The notes beneath the pieces are model-generated. The model was not told where the DNA came from, did no database searches, and saw only the letters and a program-made list of their open reading frames with translations. Positions 1,515 through 36,756 of a stretch of DNA of 46,431 nucleotides are shown here, one piece after another. The number at the start of each line of letters is the position of its first letter. Position 1 is the first letter of the stretch. The position numbers and the translations under genes are program-made. This DNA comes from a phage: the NCBI GenBank assembly GCA_021146965.1, contig GCA_021146965.1_4847.1. One strand, 5' to 3'.

Positions 1515-1540
1515 AAGCCGCATGAAGCGGCTTTTAATTT
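1515..1540 (+). terminator. rho-independent terminator
   Basis: hairpin AAGCCGC-atga-GCGGCTT followed by T-rich run directly after stop of 1137..1511. Confidence 0.6.
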
Positions 1541-1616
1541 GGTGGACACGGACGAATTTGAACCTTCAATCAGCCGATTATTAGTCGGTTGCTTTAACCA
1601 ATTAAGCTACGCGTCC
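1540..1616 (-). tRNA. tRNA-like gene (77 nt, encoded CCA; anticodon loop CUAAUAA, anticodon reads AAU, identity uncertain)
   Basis: minus-strand sequence GGACGCG-TA-GCTT-AATTGGTTA-AAGC-A-ACCGA-CTAATAA-TCGGC-TGATT-GAAGG-TTCAAAT-TCGTC-CGTGTCC-A-CCA folds as cloverleaf: 7-bp acceptor stem (one G-U), 4-bp D stem with GG in D loop, T8/A9, U33, T-loop TTCAAAT; one mismatch each in anticodon and T stems. Confidence 0.45.
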
Positions 1617-3141: not shown

Positions 3142-3281
3142 ATCACCTTGTCCTCATCAAAAATCACGCCAATAACGCGAAGTAAGTCTTTCGCCATGCG
3201 TTCCGCTTCCTCGTAGTCGTAACCTGCATCAACATACAAATCAGTGTAGAAAATCAGGTCAGCTTTTGTTTGTTCGTTCAT
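3138..3281 (-). CDS. small hypothetical protein (47 aa incl. stop)
   Basis: ORF MNEQTKADLIFYTDLYVDAGYDYEEAERMAKDLLRVIGVIFDEDKVI linking two flanking genes by ATGA overlaps at both ends; below ORF-track size cut-off. Confidence 0.4.
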   Translation of the reverse strand: MNEQTKADLIFYTDLYVDAGYDYEEAERMAKDLLRVIGVIFDEDKVI

Positions 3282-3472
3282 TTCTTGTCGCCACTGTTAA
3301 CTAATGCCCAAACAAGTGCCGCAACCCATCCAATAAAGCTCCACCCGACAAGAATATTCAGTACACAGATTGCTGTCGTGTTTGTGTGCTTGCGTTGCAA
3401 AGCCACAAATGATGGAAGAAGATAAACAAATATAACCAATCCAGCAAAAAGCAACAAAATAACAACATCCAT
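3278..3472 (-). CDS. superinfection-immunity-like small membrane protein
   Basis: 64-aa ORF with two hydrophobic helices; motif YLLPSFVALQRKHTNTTAICVLNILVGWSFIGWVAALVWAL resembles the Imm_superinfect family signature (LP..IA..R.H.N..aI...N...GWt.iGWv.AL.WA) from memory. Confidence 0.5.
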   Translation of the reverse strand: MDVVILLLFAGLVIFVYLLPSFVALQRKHTNTTAICVLNILVGWSFIGWVAALVWALVNSGDKK

Positions 3473-6698: not shown

Positions 6699-10502
<3,804 letters not shown>

Positions 10503-15428: not shown

Positions 15429-16055
15429 TCACTCTCCGTGGTTACAGAATTCTTTATGCATCTTTTCTCTGAATTTCATCACAGACAACCTCGCTCTCTC
15501 AATATCATTGAATAACCCAAGATGGTATCTTTTCCCGTTAACATCACAGTAAGCATGCCACTTTTTAACCTGTTTTTGCCAATACACACCTTTAACTCCT
15601 GATGTGTTATTTTTTGGTTTTTTAGCGTTATACTGGTTCTGCATATTTGTTGCGATTCTTAAGTTGCAAATCCTGTTATCGTCACGCACACCGTTAATGT
15701 GATCAATTTGACCTTCAGGCCAGAAACCATAATAAATCAACCATACCAAGCGATGCGCGTAGTATCTTTTATTATTTATGCTTATCTCTATGTATCCGTT
15801 ATGTTTTTTCCTGCCAGCGACACTACCCTTTCTTACACCTCCACCCGTCTTATTTCTAATGAAAACCCCTGTTTCATGGTTGTAATTTAAGCTATCCAAA
15901 ACAACATAACGTGGTATTCTTTTTCTTCTTCCTATGGTGTTTGACTCTGCACTTCCCTGAGCAAAATCTTGCTTTTGCAGTTCCGATAAACTCATTTCCA
16001 CAAACCTCGCACTTCTTAACGGTGATAGCCATTTCTTACCCTCTATTGTAATCAT
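15429..16055 (-). CDS. HNH homing endonuclease with AP2 DNA-binding domain (paralog 1 of 4)
   Basis: IDHINGVRDDNRICNLR HNH motif plus AP2-like SGVKGVYWQKQVKKWHAYCDVNGKRYHLGLF; paralogous to 25547..26059, 34748..35260, 36012..36542. Confidence 0.8.
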   Translation of the reverse strand: MITIEGKKWLSPLRSARFVEMSLSELQKQDFAQGSAESNTIGRRKRIPRYVVLDSLNYNHETGVFIRNKTGGGVRKGSVAGRKKHNGYIEISINNKRYYAHRLVWLIYYGFWPEGQIDHINGVRDDNRICNLRIATNMQNQYNAKKPKNNTSGVKGVYWQKQVKKWHAYCDVNGKRYHLGLFNDIERARLSVMKFREKMHKEFCNHGE

Positions 16056-25546: not shown

Positions 25547-26059
25547 ATGCGACCCTTAAAAGAAGAAAAACTCACGCAAGACAGGCTGAAAGAGTTGCTG
25601 CATTATAACCATGATACTGGTATTTTCACATGGGTTCAGCGCGCCTCAAAAAGCGTAAGAGTTGGTAATTCAGCTGGCAGTAAGAATAAGTCAGGCTATA
25701 TAGATATACGCATCGATAAGTCTTTACACAAAGCTCATCGGCTTGCGTGGCTTTACATTTATGGTGTGTGGCCCAATGGGAAAATAGATCACATCAATAA
25801 CGTGAAGACAGATAACAGAATCTGCAACCTGAGAGAAGCAAGCAATAATGAAAACGGATGGAATGCTGGTAAACCATCGACAAATACGTCAGGAGTAAAA
25901 GGTGTGAGTTGGGATGCAGAGAAAAATAAATGGAAGGCGCATTGCAGGGTTTTTGGGAAAAAATATACAGTAGGTAGGTTTTCATCAAAAGAATATGCTG
26001 AGAGAGCCGTGGCGGAGTTCAGAGAGAAACATCACGGGGAGTTTTTTAATCATGGCTAG
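25547..26059 (+). CDS. HNH homing endonuclease with AP2 domain (paralog 2 of 4), inserted between terS and terL
   Basis: IDHINNVKTDNRICNLREA motif plus AP2-like SGVKGVSWDAEKNKWKAHCRVFGKKYTVGRF; 3' end overlaps terL start. Confidence 0.8.
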   Translation: MRPLKEEKLTQDRLKELLHYNHDTGIFTWVQRASKSVRVGNSAGSKNKSGYIDIRIDKSLHKAHRLAWLYIYGVWPNGKIDHINNVKTDNRICNLREASNNENGWNAGKPSTNTSGVKGVSWDAEKNKWKAHCRVFGKKYTVGRFSSKEYAERAVAEFREKHHGEFFNHG

Positions 26060-27476
26060 AAAAAGACTCTCAAGTGTGGCAATCGAAAAACTTGAACAGG
26101 CGGTTGGAAACTCAACTTCAAAGCCTGAGTCTGCTGTATTTGGCATTGTTAACAAACTGCTTGCCGATGGTACGCCTAATGTTATAAAGCGCCTAAAAAT
26201 GACATCAACAGGCGTATCTGAAACAAACGAAGAACCAACAATCCTCATTCCCGAGAGAATGGAATTACTGCTTTATCCTCGTCGTTTCAAAGTGTTCTAT
26301 GGTGGTAGGGGGAGCGGAAAGACGGCTAACGTTGTTTCTTACCTCATCGAAAAGGCAAGATTCCGTAACAGTCGCGTCGGATGCTTTCGTGAGATACAGA
26401 ACTCAATCAAAGAATCAAGCTATGCCGAACTGGTTGATGAGATAAACAGGAAAGGACACACTCAGGAATATCGTTGCGTGGATGGTGAAATAACCCACCA
26501 TTCAACGAGGTCAAAGTTTGTTTTCCGTGGTTTGTGGCGAAATATAACCGCCATTAAGGGTATGGCTGGCCTTACAGATGTATTCTGTGAAGAATCAGAA
26601 AATATCAGCCAGGTTTCATGGGATACGCTAATCCCAACAGTCCGCGCCGCTGGCTCTGAAATTATTATTGTTTTTAACCCAAACAAAGAGACGGACCCGA
26701 CATGGACTAACTTTGTTGCGCCTTATATTGACAAGATGGTTGACGGCATATATCAGGATGATGACATCGTTGTTGTTAATGTTAATTACATCCACAACCC
26801 GTGGTTCACGGAAGAACTTAAGCAGCACATGAACCAGATGAAAGCTGTGGATTATGATCGCTACCTTTGGGTGTATGAAGGCTTATTCAACAAGCGGTCT
26901 GACGAAGCTGTTCTCGGGGGGAAATGGCAAACACTCGACTTTGAACCATCTCCTGAGTGGGGTGGGCCTTACTACGGCATTGACTTTGGTTTTTCTCAGG
27001 ATGCAACAGCAGCAACTGAATCATATGTAGAAGATTTGGGTGATGGACGAAGAAACCTGTATATCTATCGTGACTTTGCAAAGGTTGGCCTTGAGATAAC
27101 TGACACGCCGGAAGCGATGCGCTCAGCATTCCCAAATTCAGAGAAGTACAGATGGTATGGGGATTGCGCAAGACCTGAAACAATAAGCCATATACGACGC
27201 TCTGGATTCGATATTCATCCGTGCGCAAAATGGCCGGGGAGCATTGAGGACGGTATTACGTGGCTGCGTGGGTGTGACAGGATTTACGTGCACTCAAGAT
27301 GCAGGCACGTCATTGAAGAGATGACAATGTACAGCTATAAGGTGGACAAATTAACAGGTAACATACTCCCTGATATAGTTGATAAATACAATCACGCGAT
27401 TGATAGTTTACGCTATGGACTTGGAGATCACATCGTTCAACGCGGTAGCGGGATGCTAATCCGGCGCAGGCGATAA
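26052..27476 (+). CDS. terL: terminase large subunit
   Basis: Walker A FYGGRGSGKT; ~475 aa; start placed at ATG 26052 (track ORF begins 25995 inside HNH gene). Confidence 0.85.
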   Translation: MARKRLSSVAIEKLEQAVGNSTSKPESAVFGIVNKLLADGTPNVIKRLKMTSTGVSETNEEPTILIPERMELLLYPRRFKVFYGGRGSGKTANVVSYLIEKARFRNSRVGCFREIQNSIKESSYAELVDEINRKGHTQEYRCVDGEITHHSTRSKFVFRGLWRNITAIKGMAGLTDVFCEESENISQVSWDTLIPTVRAAGSEIIIVFNPNKETDPTWTNFVAPYIDKMVDGIYQDDDIVVVNVNYIHNPWFTEELKQHMNQMKAVDYDRYLWVYEGLFNKRSDEAVLGGKWQTLDFEPSPEWGGPYYGIDFGFSQDATAATESYVEDLGDGRRNLYIYRDFAKVGLEITDTPEAMRSAFPNSEKYRWYGDCARPETISHIRRSGFDIHPCAKWPGSIEDGITWLRGCDRIYVHSRCRHVIEEMTMYSYKVDKLTGNILPDIVDKYNHAIDSLRYGLGDHIVQRGSGMLIRRRR

Positions 27477-32353: not shown

Positions 32354-32632
32354 ATGAAACTATCGCAACGAGGCGTGGAGACGTTTGGAATTACCGATGC
32401 CGTGAATATATCGCCTTACATCACTACCGAGACAACGCAGAATCAGTTCGACGCGCTGGCAAGTCTTGCCACCGACATTGGCATTTACGCGTTCCGTAAA
32501 TCAACGCTTCTGAAGAAGCACAACCTCCGCTGCTTCTCATGTGCTGTTGCGCATTTCATCGCGTGGGGCGAGAAGACTGGCGACAAAGCAAAACGCAAAG
32601 CTGAAAAAGAGGTTTACTGGTATGGCTATTAG
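32354..32632 (+). CDS. GH24 (P22 gp19-type) lysozyme-like protein lacking the catalytic N-terminal core (probable gene remnant)
   Basis: 92 aa; C-terminal part TTQNQFDALASLATDIGIYAFRKSTLLKKHNL matches the conserved Q.Q.DAL.SL..N.G..AF..ST.L..LN segment of P22-type lysozymes, but the E/D/T catalytic region and ~55 aa are absent; 3' end overlaps endolysin start. Confidence 0.5.
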   Translation: MKLSQRGVETFGITDAVNISPYITTETTQNQFDALASLATDIGIYAFRKSTLLKKHNLRCFSCAVAHFIAWGEKTGDKAKRKAEKEVYWYGY

Positions 32633-33086
32633 TAAAAACATGAAGGCGTTTCTGGATATGCTGGCGTACAGCGAGGGCACTGATAACGGGCGGCAGAAAA
32701 CCAATAATCATGGTTATGATGTGATTGTTGGCGGCTCACTGTTTACCGACTATTCCGACCACCCGCGCAAGCTGATTAGCCTGCCAAGGCTGGGCATTAA
32801 ATCCACCGCCGCCGGTCGCTATCAGGTACTGGCTAAGTTTTATGATGCGTACAAAAAGCAATTGCGTTTACCGGACTTCTCCCCCGCATCGCAGGACGCC
32901 ATTGCAATGCAGCTAATCCGTGAATGCAAGGCCACCGCTGATATTGAGGCTGGTCGCATTGCTGATGCCATCCATAAATGCCGCTCCCGCTGGGCCTCAT
33001 TGCCGGGCGCTGGGTATGGTCAGCATGAGCAGAAGCTGGATAAGCTGATTCAGGTATACAAAGAGGCTGGCGGAGCTGTGGCATGA
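32622..33086 (+). CDS. endolysin, lambda R-type lytic transglycosylase
   Basis: KAFLDMLAYSEGTDNGRQKTNNHGYDVIVGG.LFTDYSDHPRK...AGRYQ...WASLPGAGYGQ.E.K...L...YKEAGG aligns along its length with lambda R as recalled. Confidence 0.85.
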   Translation: MAISKNMKAFLDMLAYSEGTDNGRQKTNNHGYDVIVGGSLFTDYSDHPRKLISLPRLGIKSTAAGRYQVLAKFYDAYKKQLRLPDFSPASQDAIAMQLIRECKATADIEAGRIADAIHKCRSRWASLPGAGYGQHEQKLDKLIQVYKEAGGAVA

Positions 33087-33322: not shown

Positions 33323-33794
33323 ATACTGGCGACCGCTGGCAATTATTATAATTGTTGCCGCTGGCGCGTTGTGGGTGGCAAATAAAGTGTCCGGTTATGG
33401 CGAGCAACAATATGCCGCCGGATACGCGAAGGCAGTCGCAGAACAGAAGGCCGCAGACGAACAAGAGGAGCAACGACGCAATGCAGAACTGCAAAAGATT
33501 CAGGCCGACGCACAGCAAAGGATTGATGCTGCGCGCAATGATGCTGTTAATGCTGCCGCTAAGTCTGGCAGGTTGCAGCAACAACTCACCAGTATCCGCA
33601 AGCAGCTCGTCGGATATTCCACCGCTGAGTCCATTGGCAACCCAGCCGCAGAAACCGGAGTTTTGCTTGCAGACGTGCTCCGCAAATCTGTCGAAAGAAA
33701 TCAACAGCTGGCAGATTACGCTGACAGGGGGAGAGAGGCAGGATTGACGTGTGAGGCACAGTATAATTCTCTGCGTAATAAAAAAGCCCCGTGA
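33303..33794 (+). CDS. Rz-like inner-membrane spanin (i-spanin)
   Basis: N-terminal TM helix (WRPLAIIIIVAAGALWVA) followed by coiled-coil periplasmic domain; contains embedded +1-frame lipoprotein ORF. Confidence 0.7.
   Translation: MMSILVKYWRPLAIIIIVAAGALWVANKVSGYGEQQYAAGYAKAVAEQKAADEQEEQRRNAELQKIQADAQQRIDAARNDAVNAAAKSGRLQQQLTSIRKQLVGYSTAESIGNPAAETGVLLADVLRKSVERNQQLADYADRGREAGLTCEAQYNSLRNKKAP
33526..33747 (+). CDS. Rz1-like outer-membrane lipoprotein spanin (o-spanin), embedded in Rz
   Basis: MLRAMMLLMLPLSLAGC lipobox signal peptide, Pro-rich mature region, entirely inside Rz in another frame (lambda-type embedded architecture). Confidence 0.65.
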   Translation: MLRAMMLLMLPLSLAGCSNNSPVSASSSSDIPPLSPLATQPQKPEFCLQTCSANLSKEINSWQITLTGGERQD

Positions 33795-33808
33795 TGGGGC
33801 TTTGTTTT
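33783..33808. terminator. bidirectional rho-independent terminator
   Basis: AAGCCCC-gtgat-GGGGCTTTGTTTT hairpin between convergent Rz (+) and 33829..34206 (-). Confidence 0.65.
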
Positions 33809-33828
33809 AACCTTCTCCGTAGCCAATG

Positions 33829-34206
33829 TCACGCATAAAGCGCCTCCATCTTGTACCCAAACATAATTGCATTCTGATGCTCAGTGCTACCAGAAAACAC
33901 CAGATAGCGTTTACCTCGATTATCCGTAACGATGTAGGCAGCTGGTGAGTTTTCCTTCCTAAATCTGGCTTCGTCATCACTCCCTTCATACATCCTCCCA
34001 CTCGCTGGCAGATACAAATCGAATGTTTGAATTTCCGTTCCGCTGCATTCATTGCTACGTTCATTGAACAGGATAGCCAATCTTGGGTTGCCATTGGAAT
34101 GCTTTGCAGGGAATGCGATTCTCCAGCCATCGTACATATACTGACTTGGGTAGGATAGCCATGACTTACCGCGCCTACCCTCCGTAAGAATCGGCTTACT
34201 CGCCAT
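33829..34206 (-). CDS. hypothetical protein
   Basis: start at ATG 34206 with GGAGGA RBS (track ORF extends to 34254). Confidence 0.45.
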   Translation of the reverse strand: MASKPILTEGRRGKSWLSYPSQYMYDGWRIAFPAKHSNGNPRLAILFNERSNECSGTEIQTFDLYLPASGRMYEGSDDEARFRKENSPAAYIVTDNRGKRYLVFSGSTEHQNAIMFGYKMEALYA

Positions 34207-34471
34207 TATGATCCTCCACAATCCGCACCAGTGAGCACTCAAGATTCGGTGCATTGTAATTACCAGCCAGAAACAGCACGCTACCAGTGCTAATAAGCAC
34301 CTGCTTCTCGTTCGCCTGCGACAGATTCTGCACGATGAATTGCGCTGTTTCTGTGCCGATTTTCAGCACTGCGCTGCCGTCGCTGTTCAGTGATACAAGT
34401 TGTGCGGAAGTGTCAGTAATGTTGGTGAAGTTCGCGTTTCGCTGCGCGATTGTGATGTCGCAAAAAGACAT
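34196..34471 (-). CDS. hypothetical protein
   Basis: 91-aa ORF in leftward cassette. Confidence 0.4.
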   Translation of the reverse strand: MSFCDITIAQRNANFTNITDTSAQLVSLNSDGSAVLKIGTETAQFIVQNLSQANEKQVLISTGSVLFLAGNYNAPNLECSLVRIVEDHNGE

Positions 34472-34773
34472 TATTTAATCTCTCCGTTCAGTTCATTAAC
34501 AATTAACGTTGCATAGCCAGCAATATCTTTCCAGCTGTCATCATAAGTCGGGTCGCCATTCAGAATGCGCCCAATCTTGTGCTGAATCATGTCGAGCGCC
34601 TCGCGTTGACTTGGTGTGAGATTGCGCCAGCCATCTACCTTGCGCATCACATCTTTCAACTCCTGCATAATTTCAGCGCCGTCTTTGAATTTACCGTATC
34701 GACTACCGCGTTCGGTGATGAGTCGCTCTGTTGCGTCAGTATGGCGCTTATCGCCCGTGATTTGTGAACTCAT
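34471..34773 (-). CDS. hypothetical protein
   Basis: 100-aa ORF, ATG start. Confidence 0.45.
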   Translation of the reverse strand: MSSQITGDKRHTDATERLITERGSRYGKFKDGAEIMQELKDVMRKVDGWRNLTPSQREALDMIQHKIGRILNGDPTYDDSWKDIAGYATLIVNELNGEIK

Positions 34774-35260
34774 TGTGATGCATTCTCCTGAATTCTTTTA
34801 TTTTTGCTTCTGCTTCTCTTATGTCGGAAAAGTAACCAACTGTGAATCTTTTGCCATTTACTCCAACTCTTGCATGCCACTTGTTGTGCGATGAACTCCA
34901 GTTAACCCCCTTGATACCGCTAGTGTTGTTTTTGTTCATTGCTTTGTTGTGGCTATTCTCAAATTTGCTGGCCTCCCTTAAATTGCACGCCCTGTTGTCA
35001 TTGCGAATGCCATTAATGTGGTCAATCATTTCACTTGCTGGCGCGCCATGAATGCATATCCATGCCAATCTGTGAGCAAGAAAAGCCCTACCGCAAAGAA
35101 TTATTTGCACATATCCATCTGGCTTTAAGTAGCCAGCCACACTCCCTTTTTCTGCAATCCTATTCCTTGTCTTTAGCCATTTAAATTCCCCAGTTAGTGG
35201 ATTGTAGTAAAGGTAACTCAATATAAACTCCCTACTCGGCTCATCTCTCCTATGCCTCAT
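34748..35260 (-). CDS. HNH homing endonuclease with AP2 domain (paralog 3 of 4)
   Basis: IDHINGIRNDNRACNLREA plus AP2-like SGIKGVNWSSSHNKWHARVGVNGKRFTVGYF. Confidence 0.8.
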   Translation of the reverse strand: MRHRRDEPSREFILSYLYYNPLTGEFKWLKTRNRIAEKGSVAGYLKPDGYVQIILCGRAFLAHRLAWICIHGAPASEMIDHINGIRNDNRACNLREASKFENSHNKAMNKNNTSGIKGVNWSSSHNKWHARVGVNGKRFTVGYFSDIREAEAKIKEFRRMHHNEFTNHGR

Positions 35261-35463
35261 TTCTCATCCTCTTTCATTGTCACCCTATTATTCTCGTCAA
35301 CACTGAAGTTGGCCCGAATCAAATCATACATATCTTCCTTAGGCATATCAGCCAGCGCCACATAGCAACGGGCGAAGTAGCGAACATCACGGAGTGTCAG
35401 CGGTTGTCGCTTCTCCACAATGCTGGTGATAATGTCCATCGGCTCGCGTCGTGGTCTTGGCAT
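35257..35463 (-). CDS. hypothetical protein
   Basis: 68-aa ORF, ATGA-coupled to HNH gene downstream. Confidence 0.4.
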   Translation of the reverse strand: MPRPRREPMDIITSIVEKRQPLTLRDVRYFARCYVALADMPKEDMYDLIRANFSVDENNRVTMKEDEK

Positions 35464-35490
35464 ATTTACTACTCCTTCTCGAAAAACATC

Positions 35491-35535
35491 TTGACGTTTC
35501 TACATCATTTAGTCAATACTTGTTGACGTAGATTG
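35491..35535. promoter_or_regulatory. divergent promoter/operator region with tandem TTGACG... motif copies
   Basis: TTGACGTTTCTACATCA (35491-35507) and TGTTGACGTAGATTG (35521-35535) between divergent genes 35257..35463(-) and 35563..35760(+). Confidence 0.45.
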
Positions 35536-35562
35536 TACCACAACGGAAAAGGTGATGTGGAA

Positions 35563-35760
35563 ATGCGATACAAAGAAATAGCAGCGAGATACCAGAAGGA
35601 AGTTCGCGAGGTTATGGAAATCCTTAACGTTCGCGAGGATACCATTAAGTTTGTGGAAACCGCCATGTGTTCACTGGCGCTTGAAGCGGAGGTTGCGGGT
35701 CGTGAAAAGGCTGACGAACTTATATCTGCGGTGGTTTATAGTTCAACCAGTAACGGTTGA
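35563..35760 (+). CDS. hypothetical protein
   Basis: internal ATG of track ORF 35533..35760 with AAAGGTG RBS. Confidence 0.4.
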   Translation: MRYKEIAARYQKEVREVMEILNVREDTIKFVETAMCSLALEAEVAGREKADELISAVVYSSTSNG

Positions 35761-35820
35761 AGATGAAGGTTATCTGTGCGTTGAGCACGTTGTTATCAAA
35801 TTCTACGGGAGAAATTATAA

Positions 35821-36015
35821 ATGGCGCATGACGAACTGTACGAAGAATCGTTAATCCAGAGGTTGAATGAAGTTGAGCGCACTCGCGAATGGCTGGAGTG
35901 CGAGTTACGAGAAGTGCGCAACCGCCTGCAACGCAAGCGCAGTCAGCAAAGAGATGTCATCGACTGGTCTGGGGGTACACCTAAATTTAACAATCTGGGA
36001 GAATGGTTGAAATGA
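35821..36015 (+). CDS. hypothetical coiled-coil protein
   Basis: 64-aa ORF. Confidence 0.4.
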   Translation: MAHDELYEESLIQRLNEVERTREWLECELREVRNRLQRKRSQQRDVIDWSGGTPKFNNLGEWLK

Positions 36016-36542
36016 GCAACATTAGTAAGGAAAGCATTTTAAAGTTCCTCCAGCATGATGAAAATACAGGAAACTTTCTATGGATTGATAATTTCTCAAG
36101 AAAATCAAAGAAAGGGAAGGTGGCTGGAGGTATTACATCGCATGGGTATTGGAGAATTCAACTCCCCATCGGGAGGTTTTACGCACACAGAATGGCGTGG
36201 ATTGTTTGCAATGGAGATATACCAAACGGATATGAGATTGATCACATAAATGGGAACAAGAAAGATAATCGCATCAGCAACCTAAGATTGGTCACAAGAG
36301 GTCAAAATGTTATGAATGTAGGCGTGAAAAACAATAATACAAGCGGAGTTAAGGATGTTGTTTGGGACTCTTCGCGAGAAAGGTGGAGGGTTCAAATTAC
36401 AGCCAATGGCAAGCATTATTATGGAGGTAGATTCTCGTCAATAACACAAGCAAAAGAGGAGAGGAACAGGCTCATAAAGATGGTTCACGGGAAATTTTTG
36501 AATACAAAAGGTGAGCAATATGACACTACTAATGAACGATGA
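36012..36542 (+). CDS. HNH homing endonuclease with AP2 domain (paralog 4 of 4)
   Basis: IDHINGNKKDNRISNLRLV plus AP2-like SGVKDVVWDSSRERWRVQITANGKHYYGGRF; ATG 36012 with GGGAGA RBS. Confidence 0.8.
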   Translation: MSNISKESILKFLQHDENTGNFLWIDNFSRKSKKGKVAGGITSHGYWRIQLPIGRFYAHRMAWIVCNGDIPNGYEIDHINGNKKDNRISNLRLVTRGQNVMNVGVKNNNTSGVKDVVWDSSRERWRVQITANGKHYYGGRFSSITQAKEERNRLIKMVHGKFLNTKGEQYDTTNER

Positions 36543-36756
36543 GAAATTACTTGAATGCCCGTTTTGTGGTTGTGATGACGTAAGTGTTATTGATGACGGC
36601 GAATGGTTGCACGTTGAGTGCGGAGATTGTTTTTGCCGCACTGACTCGTATTGCTGCGCATCCACGGCAATGAAGAAATGGAACACAAGAGGTGGACACC
36701 TCTACACTTCCGACGACTTCAATCAGGCAGCAGAGGAGCGTGATTATGGACTATAA
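36520..36756 (+). CDS. Lar-family restriction alleviation protein (zinc ribbon)
   Basis: LECPFCGCDD...HVECGDCFCRT...AMKKWNTR pattern matches the Lar restriction-alleviation family as recalled; start 36520 or 36532. Confidence 0.5.
   Translation: MTLLMNDEKLLECPFCGCDDVSVIDDGEWLHVECGDCFCRTDSYCCASTAMKKWNTRGGHLYTSDDFNQAAEERDYGL

Follow-up and report, generated by a model that had tools for sequence, protein, structure and literature searches.

Free-standing phage HNH homing endonucleases spread by intronless homing, as exemplified by MobE of phage T4 between nrdA and nrdB. The HNH-AP2 architecture was reportedly described by Magnani and colleagues in 2004. Phage counter-defence clusters include arrays that contain the Thoeris sponge Tad2, PF11195 (Yirmiya et al., bioRxiv 10.1101/2023.05.01.538930), or Lar. 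Here we describe an operon with features of both, encoded at positions 33829-35463 on the minus strand of a 46,431-nucleotide (nt) stretch of phage DNA (NCBI GenBank assembly GCA_021146965.1, contig GCA_021146965.1_4847.1). This whole stretch, the window, is nearly the complete genome of a virulent enterobacterial siphophage, and the leftward operon lies between the lysis and head genes, outside the replication module. With a probability of roughly 60%, we read it as a mosaic accessory operon that was remodelled by a homing endonuclease gene and whose other genes most likely act in counter-defence or host takeover.

Like free-standing homing endonucleases, the operon's second gene is a small HNH_3 open reading frame (ORF) with a putative AP2-like DNA-binding tail, translationally coupled between conserved genes, found in some close relatives only, better conserved than the DNA on either side and accompanied by several paralogs in the genome. 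It differs from them in that it occupies the place of the N-terminal domain (N-domain) of the downstream gene and supplies a new start codon, and in that two HNH lineages use one site. The likeness to counter-defence clusters lies in very small, fast-exchanging genes beside a promoter, with a Tad2-like gene in relatives and Lar in the window. Unlike in those clusters, no known anti-defence family includes any of the five proteins. The locus itself is of an ordinary kind for a virulent siphophage, a mosaic of small genes, and GenBank already contains its sequence.

All five minus-strand ORFs listed in an earlier annotation of the letters alone, the sequence-only reading, are present with the sizes and positions it gave. 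From the promoter they are orf68 (35257-35463, 68 amino acids (aa)), a conserved anchor gene; the HNH-AP2 gene (34748-35260, 170 aa), a putative free-standing homing endonuclease gene with HNH_3 and AP2-like segments; orf100 (34471-34773, 100 aa), a stand-alone DUF6378 domain; orf91 (34196-34471, 91 aa), another conserved anchor; and orf125 (33829-34206, 125 aa), the last gene. Consecutive genes overlap by 4, 26, 1 and 11 nt, as read from the sequence, and each of the five has a Shine-Dalgarno sequence. The genes look translationally coupled, and the tight coupling that had been claimed for the operon holds as start-to-stop overlaps at all four junctions. The mechanical ORF of orf125 is 141 aa long. 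We consider the 125-aa start at 34206 the better choice because it has a GGAGGA Shine-Dalgarno sequence and because the homologue in a related locus, L031, lacks the upstream ATG.

To compare the locus among related phages, as the sequence-only reading had proposed, we retrieved 24 IMG/VR loci with a conserved 26-mer and 32 with the orf91 protein, mapped their ORFs and compared about 36 related loci (cited here by handles such as L031). GenBank contains 167 relatives. The comparison revealed variable slots on a conserved scaffold. The anchors are orf68 and orf91; the three variable slots are the orf68/DUF6378 junction, an optional ORF of 70-75 aa and the terminator-proximal end. The operon had been called a hypervariable accessory locus, which fits the three slots and not the operon as a whole, as orf68, orf91 and the C-terminal domain (C-domain) of the second slot are anchors conserved across the lineage. 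Over 33700-35700 the window is 99.8% identical in nucleotides to Escherichia phage vB_Eco_ZCEC08 (PP213477, locus 8148-9782) and Salmonella phage vB_SenS_ST1UNAM (OQ469755), which have the same five coding sequences (CDS). In ZCEC08 one of these is annotated 'HNH homing endonuclease' and the other four are labelled hypothetical proteins; the ST1UNAM record likewise has only hypothetical or HNH labels. The ZCEC08 paper contains no analysis of the locus (PMC12001532).

The ORFs behave as genes. In relatives retrieved with the orf91 protein, diversity in orf68, orf91 and DUF6378 was 0.02-0.05 at codon positions 1 and 2 versus 0.19-0.24 at position 3 (for orf91, 0.026, 0.016 and 0.241 at positions 1, 2 and 3). 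The dN/dS of orf125 was 0.085 against L030, the sole full-length divergent homologue whose DNA was compared (76% nucleotide identity). These low values indicate that the ORFs are genuine genes under purifying selection and not chance ORFs. A profile search of each ORF, also proposed earlier, identified HNH_3 and DUF6378 in Pfam; orf68, orf91 and orf125 had no match in Pfam, NCBIfam, PADLOC or PDB.

The HNH protein matches Pfam HNH_3 (PF13392) at 42.1 bits against a cut-off of 24.8 (E=6.8e-11) and also matches phrog_99. Its AP2 match (PF00847) scores 23 bits, below the cut-off of 33.3 (E=9.7e-5), with the block NTSG.KGV.W...W...NGK..G.F conserved. A sequence search of PDB with this protein returned nothing significant. 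The catalytic motif is intact: IDHIN-x4-DNR-x2-NLR-x6-N-x2-N is invariant in five paralogs and homologues. The window encodes four HNH_3-AP2 paralogs (15435-15929, minus strand; 25547-26056, plus; 34748-35260, minus; 36003-36542, plus) with 37-46% identity, all of which keep this motif. The gene in the operon is the third in coordinate order, in agreement with its earlier label, AP2-HNH paralog 3.

Presence of the gene is polymorphic at a fixed site. It is missing from this site in phages ASO78B and Bas81 and in most relatives, though the flanking genes are the same. In four other loci the site is taken by a second HNH lineage of about 40% identity, and the C-domain gene beside it is likewise short and stand-alone. 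Where the window's allele is shared, it is more conserved than its surroundings. Against L004 the HNH DNA is 98.2% identical and the flanks 90-92.6%, the change being abrupt at the ORF boundaries; against L016 the values are 95.3% and about 90-92%. Only three GenBank phages have the HNH allele at 99% identity or more, and the next-best HNH proteins fall below 60%. Because of the site polymorphism between conserved genes, the two HNH lineages and the sharp excess conservation, we interpret the gene as a mobile free-standing homing endonuclease gene inserted into the operon, and we infer homing as the mechanism.

The gene could instead be a domesticated, immobile operon component, for example a nuclease working with the packaging or recombination machinery. 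All four paralogs have intact catalytic motifs, one lies directly upstream of a 493-aa ORF (25995-27476), the ZCEC08 authors place homing endonucleases under DNA packaging (PMC12001532), and coupling to the neighbours is tight. We nevertheless consider domestication improbable. It does not fit a gene that is missing from most relatives with the same flanking genes, that exceeds its flanks in conservation with sharp boundaries, that has a second HNH lineage as a substitute at its site, and whose presence correlates perfectly with loss of the neighbouring N-domain. Regarding the paralog at 25547-26056, it is not only upstream of the 493-aa ORF but overlaps it; that ORF is a putative large terminase, judged from its size and position. 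The paralog at 36003-36542 lies in the rightward arm across the divergent promoter, where ASO78B and Bas81 carry a 222-nt ORF.

The N-domain loss concerns slot 2, between orf68 and orf91. The protein encoded there ends in DUF6378 in 21 of 31 loci and in a 67-aa alternative domain in the other ten. Where no HNH gene is present, the slot-2 protein usually consists of the C-domain behind a hypervariable N-domain of one of at least four unrelated types and is 140-209 aa long; the DUF6378 alignment likewise has an invariant C-domain behind hypervariable N-termini. The window, L041/L016 and EcoIv28_Lewi have the 170-aa HNH gene in the place of the N-domain, and DUF6378 is a stand-alone ORF of 100 aa. 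The N-domain is absent from six of six HNH-containing loci versus two of 25 HNH-free ones (hypergeometric p about 4e-5, from those counts). The 100-aa protein aligns to positions 74-163 of the 163-aa phrog_17775. The first 13 codons of orf100 overlap the 3' end of the HNH gene in another reading frame and run slightly past it.

We propose that the ancestral slot-2 gene was modular, with a variable N-domain followed by DUF6378 or the alternative C-domain, and that the HNH-AP2 gene replaced the N-domain segment. The likely route would be double-strand-break repair with an HNH-carrying phage as the template and with orf68 and DUF6378 as homology arms. Expression of DUF6378 would continue through a new ATG and Shine-Dalgarno sequence that lie within the 3' end of the HNH gene. 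We read both the 100-aa and the 125-aa protein as chimeric or truncated forms of modular genes. More generally, orf68 and orf91 would serve as homology anchors, with cassettes exchanged between and after them.

The 100-aa protein matches Pfam DUF6378 (PF19905) at 30.4 bits, against a gathering cut-off of 27.1. The family comprises 6666 clusters at 50% identity and has the invariant residues R22, G23, Y26, G27, F29, E58, K66, R69, G73, D79 and D83. Forty long DUF6378 proteins contained no known Pfam domain among their fusion partners, a profile search found no PDB relative of the family, and in the literature it is mentioned only as an annotation label. One function that might be considered is that of a MazG-like all-alpha NTP pyrophosphohydrolase that cleans or depletes nucleotides. 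The AlphaFold2 (AF2) model of orf100 is a four-helix bundle, and the family conserves acidic and basic residues (E58, D/E61, K66, R69, D79 and D83). On the other side, DUF6378 resembled no solved MazG, dUTPase or HisE protein in sequence or in fold, and the model's mean predicted local distance difference test (pLDDT) score of 68.7, of moderate confidence, makes it a weak test of the fold. We therefore regard this enzymatic assignment as very improbable.

The alternative C-domain (NKYLHEIKPGVFVDVYDVLMAWNVTNPALQHLIKKALQAGERGHKSREQDLQDIIDSAIRAKELEIK) replaces DUF6378 in, for example, L033 (2070-2501), L036 (1709-2287) and L062 (2235-2501). It has no Pfam match and forms the C-terminus of several PHROGs listed without a function (phrog_2452, 35158 and 13223). 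Some of the proteins that contain it also carry a Cys-rich middle segment (…NCRCKP…). Homology between DUF6378 and this domain was considered and rejected (hhalign probability 0.13%).

The terminator-proximal slot is also modular. Among relatives, 167 to 723 nt separate the end of orf91 from the terminator. In the window the slot holds orf125, in which an orphan N-domain (33946-34206, minus strand, aa 1-87) is joined to a widely shared C-terminal motif of 38 aa (33832-33945, minus strand, aa 88-125). The N-domain has a pN/pS of 0.16, with synonymous sites saturated. Only five protein clusters contain it, and those of their contigs that are long enough to judge are all phage-sized. The motif, PAAYIVTDNRGKRYLVFSGSVEHQNAxMFGYKMEALYA, recurs in about 40 other clusters behind unrelated N-termini of very different lengths. 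AF2 models it as beta-beta-alpha-beta with a pLDDT of about 90, and the N-domain with low confidence (pLDDT 41-65). A BFVD structure search with orf125 recovered only the family of the C-terminal motif. We examined whether that motif is DUF551, the name of BFVD hit L0ASW4, and dismissed this, as 15 family members gave no Pfam match at E<=5. L031 carries an orf125 homologue without the HNH gene, and the modules therefore assort independently.

In L031 the orf125 homologue is directly followed by a gene (3153-3407) that bears on the function of the operon. An 84-aa gene of this kind occupies the terminator-proximal slot in four of 36 related loci (L031, L005, L039 and L054). The L031 and L005 proteins score 86-88 bits with Pfam PF11195, 'Tad2-like' (cut-off 25); the ORFs of L039 and L054 were grouped with them by BLASTP only, without a Pfam scan. 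Thoeris signal sponges of the Tad2 family make up PF11195 (bioRxiv 10.1101/2025.07.12.664507). Across the divergent promoter, the window's rightward operon encodes a Lar restriction-alleviation protein (Lar_restr_allev, PF14354, E=6.7e-10) at 36511-36756. Known anti-defence genes are thus co-located with the operon, Lar in the divergent arm and the Tad2-like gene in the same operon of relatives. Because of these two associations we infer an anti-defence role for the operon, which is probably a counter-defence gene array. The operon belongs to a virulent enterobacterial siphophage lineage, the ZCEC08/ST1UNAM/Swiduovirus/Akiravirus group. The sequence-only reading had assigned the locus no function. 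That stands for orf68, orf91, DUF6378 and orf125, for which we found none, and the Tad2-like gene of relatives and Lar narrow the field. The L005 Tad2-like protein is CDS15 of Acinetobacter phage vB_AbaM_AB4P2, a 'hypothetical protein' in OR544125. This phage is about 90% identical to the present Escherichia/Salmonella group across the locus, and its host or morphotype label looks doubtful.

A more specific proposal is that the locus is a counter-defence island with at least one new immune inhibitor, namely the orf125 N-domain, orf91 or DUF6378, and that three shared C-terminal modules, namely the 38-aa motif, DUF6378 and its alternative, act as scaffolds for exchangeable N-domains that confer specificity. 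The orf125 N-domain sits where relatives place the Tad2-like gene. We hold this version only tentatively, as a possible but rather unlikely one.

Several points weigh against the reading of a remodelled accessory operon with counter-defence genes. None of the five window proteins matches PF11195, and tblastn finds no Tad2-like gene anywhere in the window. The operon proteins belong to no anti-defence family known to Pfam, NCBIfam, PADLOC or PHROG. The proposed role therefore amounts to guilt by association, with a Tad2-like gene in a minority of relatives (4/36). Lineage-wide conservation of orf68, orf91 and DUF6378 or its alternative fits a core role equally well. The promoter scan found six promoter-like sites, no excess over the 4.8 +/- 2.4 of shuffled sequences. 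The polarity of the slot-2 change could also be the reverse, with the HNH gene ancestral and the N-domains inserted later; the presence of two HNH lineages and many N-domain types argues against this.

The core role deserves separate weighing. The non-HNH genes could be core developmental genes, such as regulators or nucleotide and DNA metabolism helpers, with variability confined to dispensable appendages. An orf68 homologue (phrog_14963, E=3e-43) is present in 30 of the 32 loci retrieved via orf91, the two without it (L052 and L059) having little sequence upstream of orf91. The orf91 protein (phrog_16624, E=8e-55) is 89-98% identical in 32 viral contigs and has a homologue in nearly all loci retrieved via orf68; DUF6378 or the alternative domain is found in 31 of 31. 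Purifying selection on orf68, orf91 and DUF6378 is strong, orf68, which comes first after the promoter, is very highly conserved, and DUF6378 genes of other phages lie in replication or nucleotide-metabolism modules (PMC13432834, PMC11836647). Yet the orf68 family is small, with 73 clusters, and every long contig that carries it is phage-sized, at about 40-49 kb; by these counts orf68 is restricted to this phage lineage. The locus lies between lysis and head genes and not in a replication module, the neighbouring slots swap freely and hold Tad2-like genes in relatives, and two unrelated, interchangeable C-domains in slot 2 would be unusual for an essential enzyme. We judge a core role unlikely on balance and favor the mosaic accessory operon. 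Length also varies at one anchor: orf91 is 101-102 aa in most relatives, and in the window its last five codons differ at the junction with orf125.

Transcription of the operon from the 99 bp between orf68 and the first rightward gene (35464-35562; ATG at 35563) is plausible. We propose that host RNA polymerase probably makes one leftward transcript from this divergent promoter region to a hairpin at 33783-33803. An alignment of 24 haplotypes revealed the conserved blocks TTGACn, TAGTCAATAC and GATTsTAyCACAA in the region. The best leftward candidate in the window, P_L(a) (35532-35561, minus strand), came from the promoter scan and has TCCACA, an 18-nt spacer and an extended -10, TG-n-TACAAT; it is a consensus match only, and its -10 is kept as TA(C/G)AAT in relatives. 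A second, P_L(b) (35487-35516, minus strand), was read from the sequence and alignment and has TTGACT, an 18-nt spacer and AAGATG. Its -10 is degenerate in the window and reads AATAAT or AACAAT in relatives, and the ASO78B annotation lists a promoter at the equivalent site. A rightward candidate (35491-35520, plus strand; TTGACG, 18-nt spacer, AATACT) draws on the scan and on conservation.

It had been suggested that the operon is driven from this region, which holds two TTGACG copies. Both copies exist (35491-35496 and 35523-35528), and leftward sigma-70-like candidates do lie in the region. The motif itself is no evidence for them: both copies are on the plus strand, which leaves them a role as -35-like boxes in rightward transcription only. 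The first copy is the -35 of the rightward candidate and, as TTGACn, the only one kept in all relatives. We also considered TTGACG as a phage-specific promoter motif and discarded the idea, as it is not enriched (28 copies in the window versus 24.8 +/- 5.3 expected).

At the other end, a terminator scan identified a bidirectional intrinsic terminator (33783-33803; AAAGCCCC-loop-GGGGCTTT). The hairpin is GC-rich with T-runs flanking both sides, and the convergent spanin gene has its stop codon in the loop. The terminator lies 26 nt beyond the end of the operon and closes the leftward operon as well as the lysis cassette, which runs rightward. The hairpin is kept in relatives and is annotated as a terminator by two programs in ASO78B.

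With the divergent promoter at its centre, a block of about 420 bp (35344-35760) has about fourfold lower diversity at fourfold degenerate sites than its neighbours. The block spans the first 40 codons of orf68 and the entire first rightward gene, with values of 0.068 and 0.072 versus 0.28-0.34 in orf91, DUF6378 and the second rightward gene (Mann-Whitney p=4e-5); the loci compared were retrieved independently of the block. Homogenisation of a recombination anchor between phages could account for the block, as could a cis element at the nucleotide level. A search for an RNA element in the locus or in the strongly conserved 5' region of orf68 gave no structure signal (fold z-scores +0.37 and +0.12), and Rfam returned nothing at E<=1, also for 35344-36100. 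Repeats in the locus were limited to short two-copy chance matches.

Two observations concern other parts of the window. The lysis cassette has two adjacent, overlapping lysozyme-like ORFs, at 32354-32632 and 32541-33086. The first, of 92 aa, matches only positions 55-114 of Pfam Phage_lysozyme, and the second, the endolysin ORF, matches phrog_90. ZCEC08 and ASO78B label each of the two 'lysozyme', and Bas81 has a single endolysin gene; the pair could be a split or duplicated endolysin. The sole tRNA gene (1540-1616, minus strand) is a tRNA-Ile with the unusual anticodon AAT, and the same tRNA is given in the ZCEC08 paper (PMC12001532).

The locus offers a clean natural case of two HNH lineages competing for one site with the neighbouring gene remodelled. 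The pattern of a conserved C-terminal module behind a hypervariable N-terminus is found in two genes of the one operon. In orf125, orf91, DUF6378 and orf68 there is a testable shortlist of small phage proteins from a locus marked by Tad2-like and Lar genes. DUF6378 is so large among phage families that any phenotype established for it would apply to thousands of phages.

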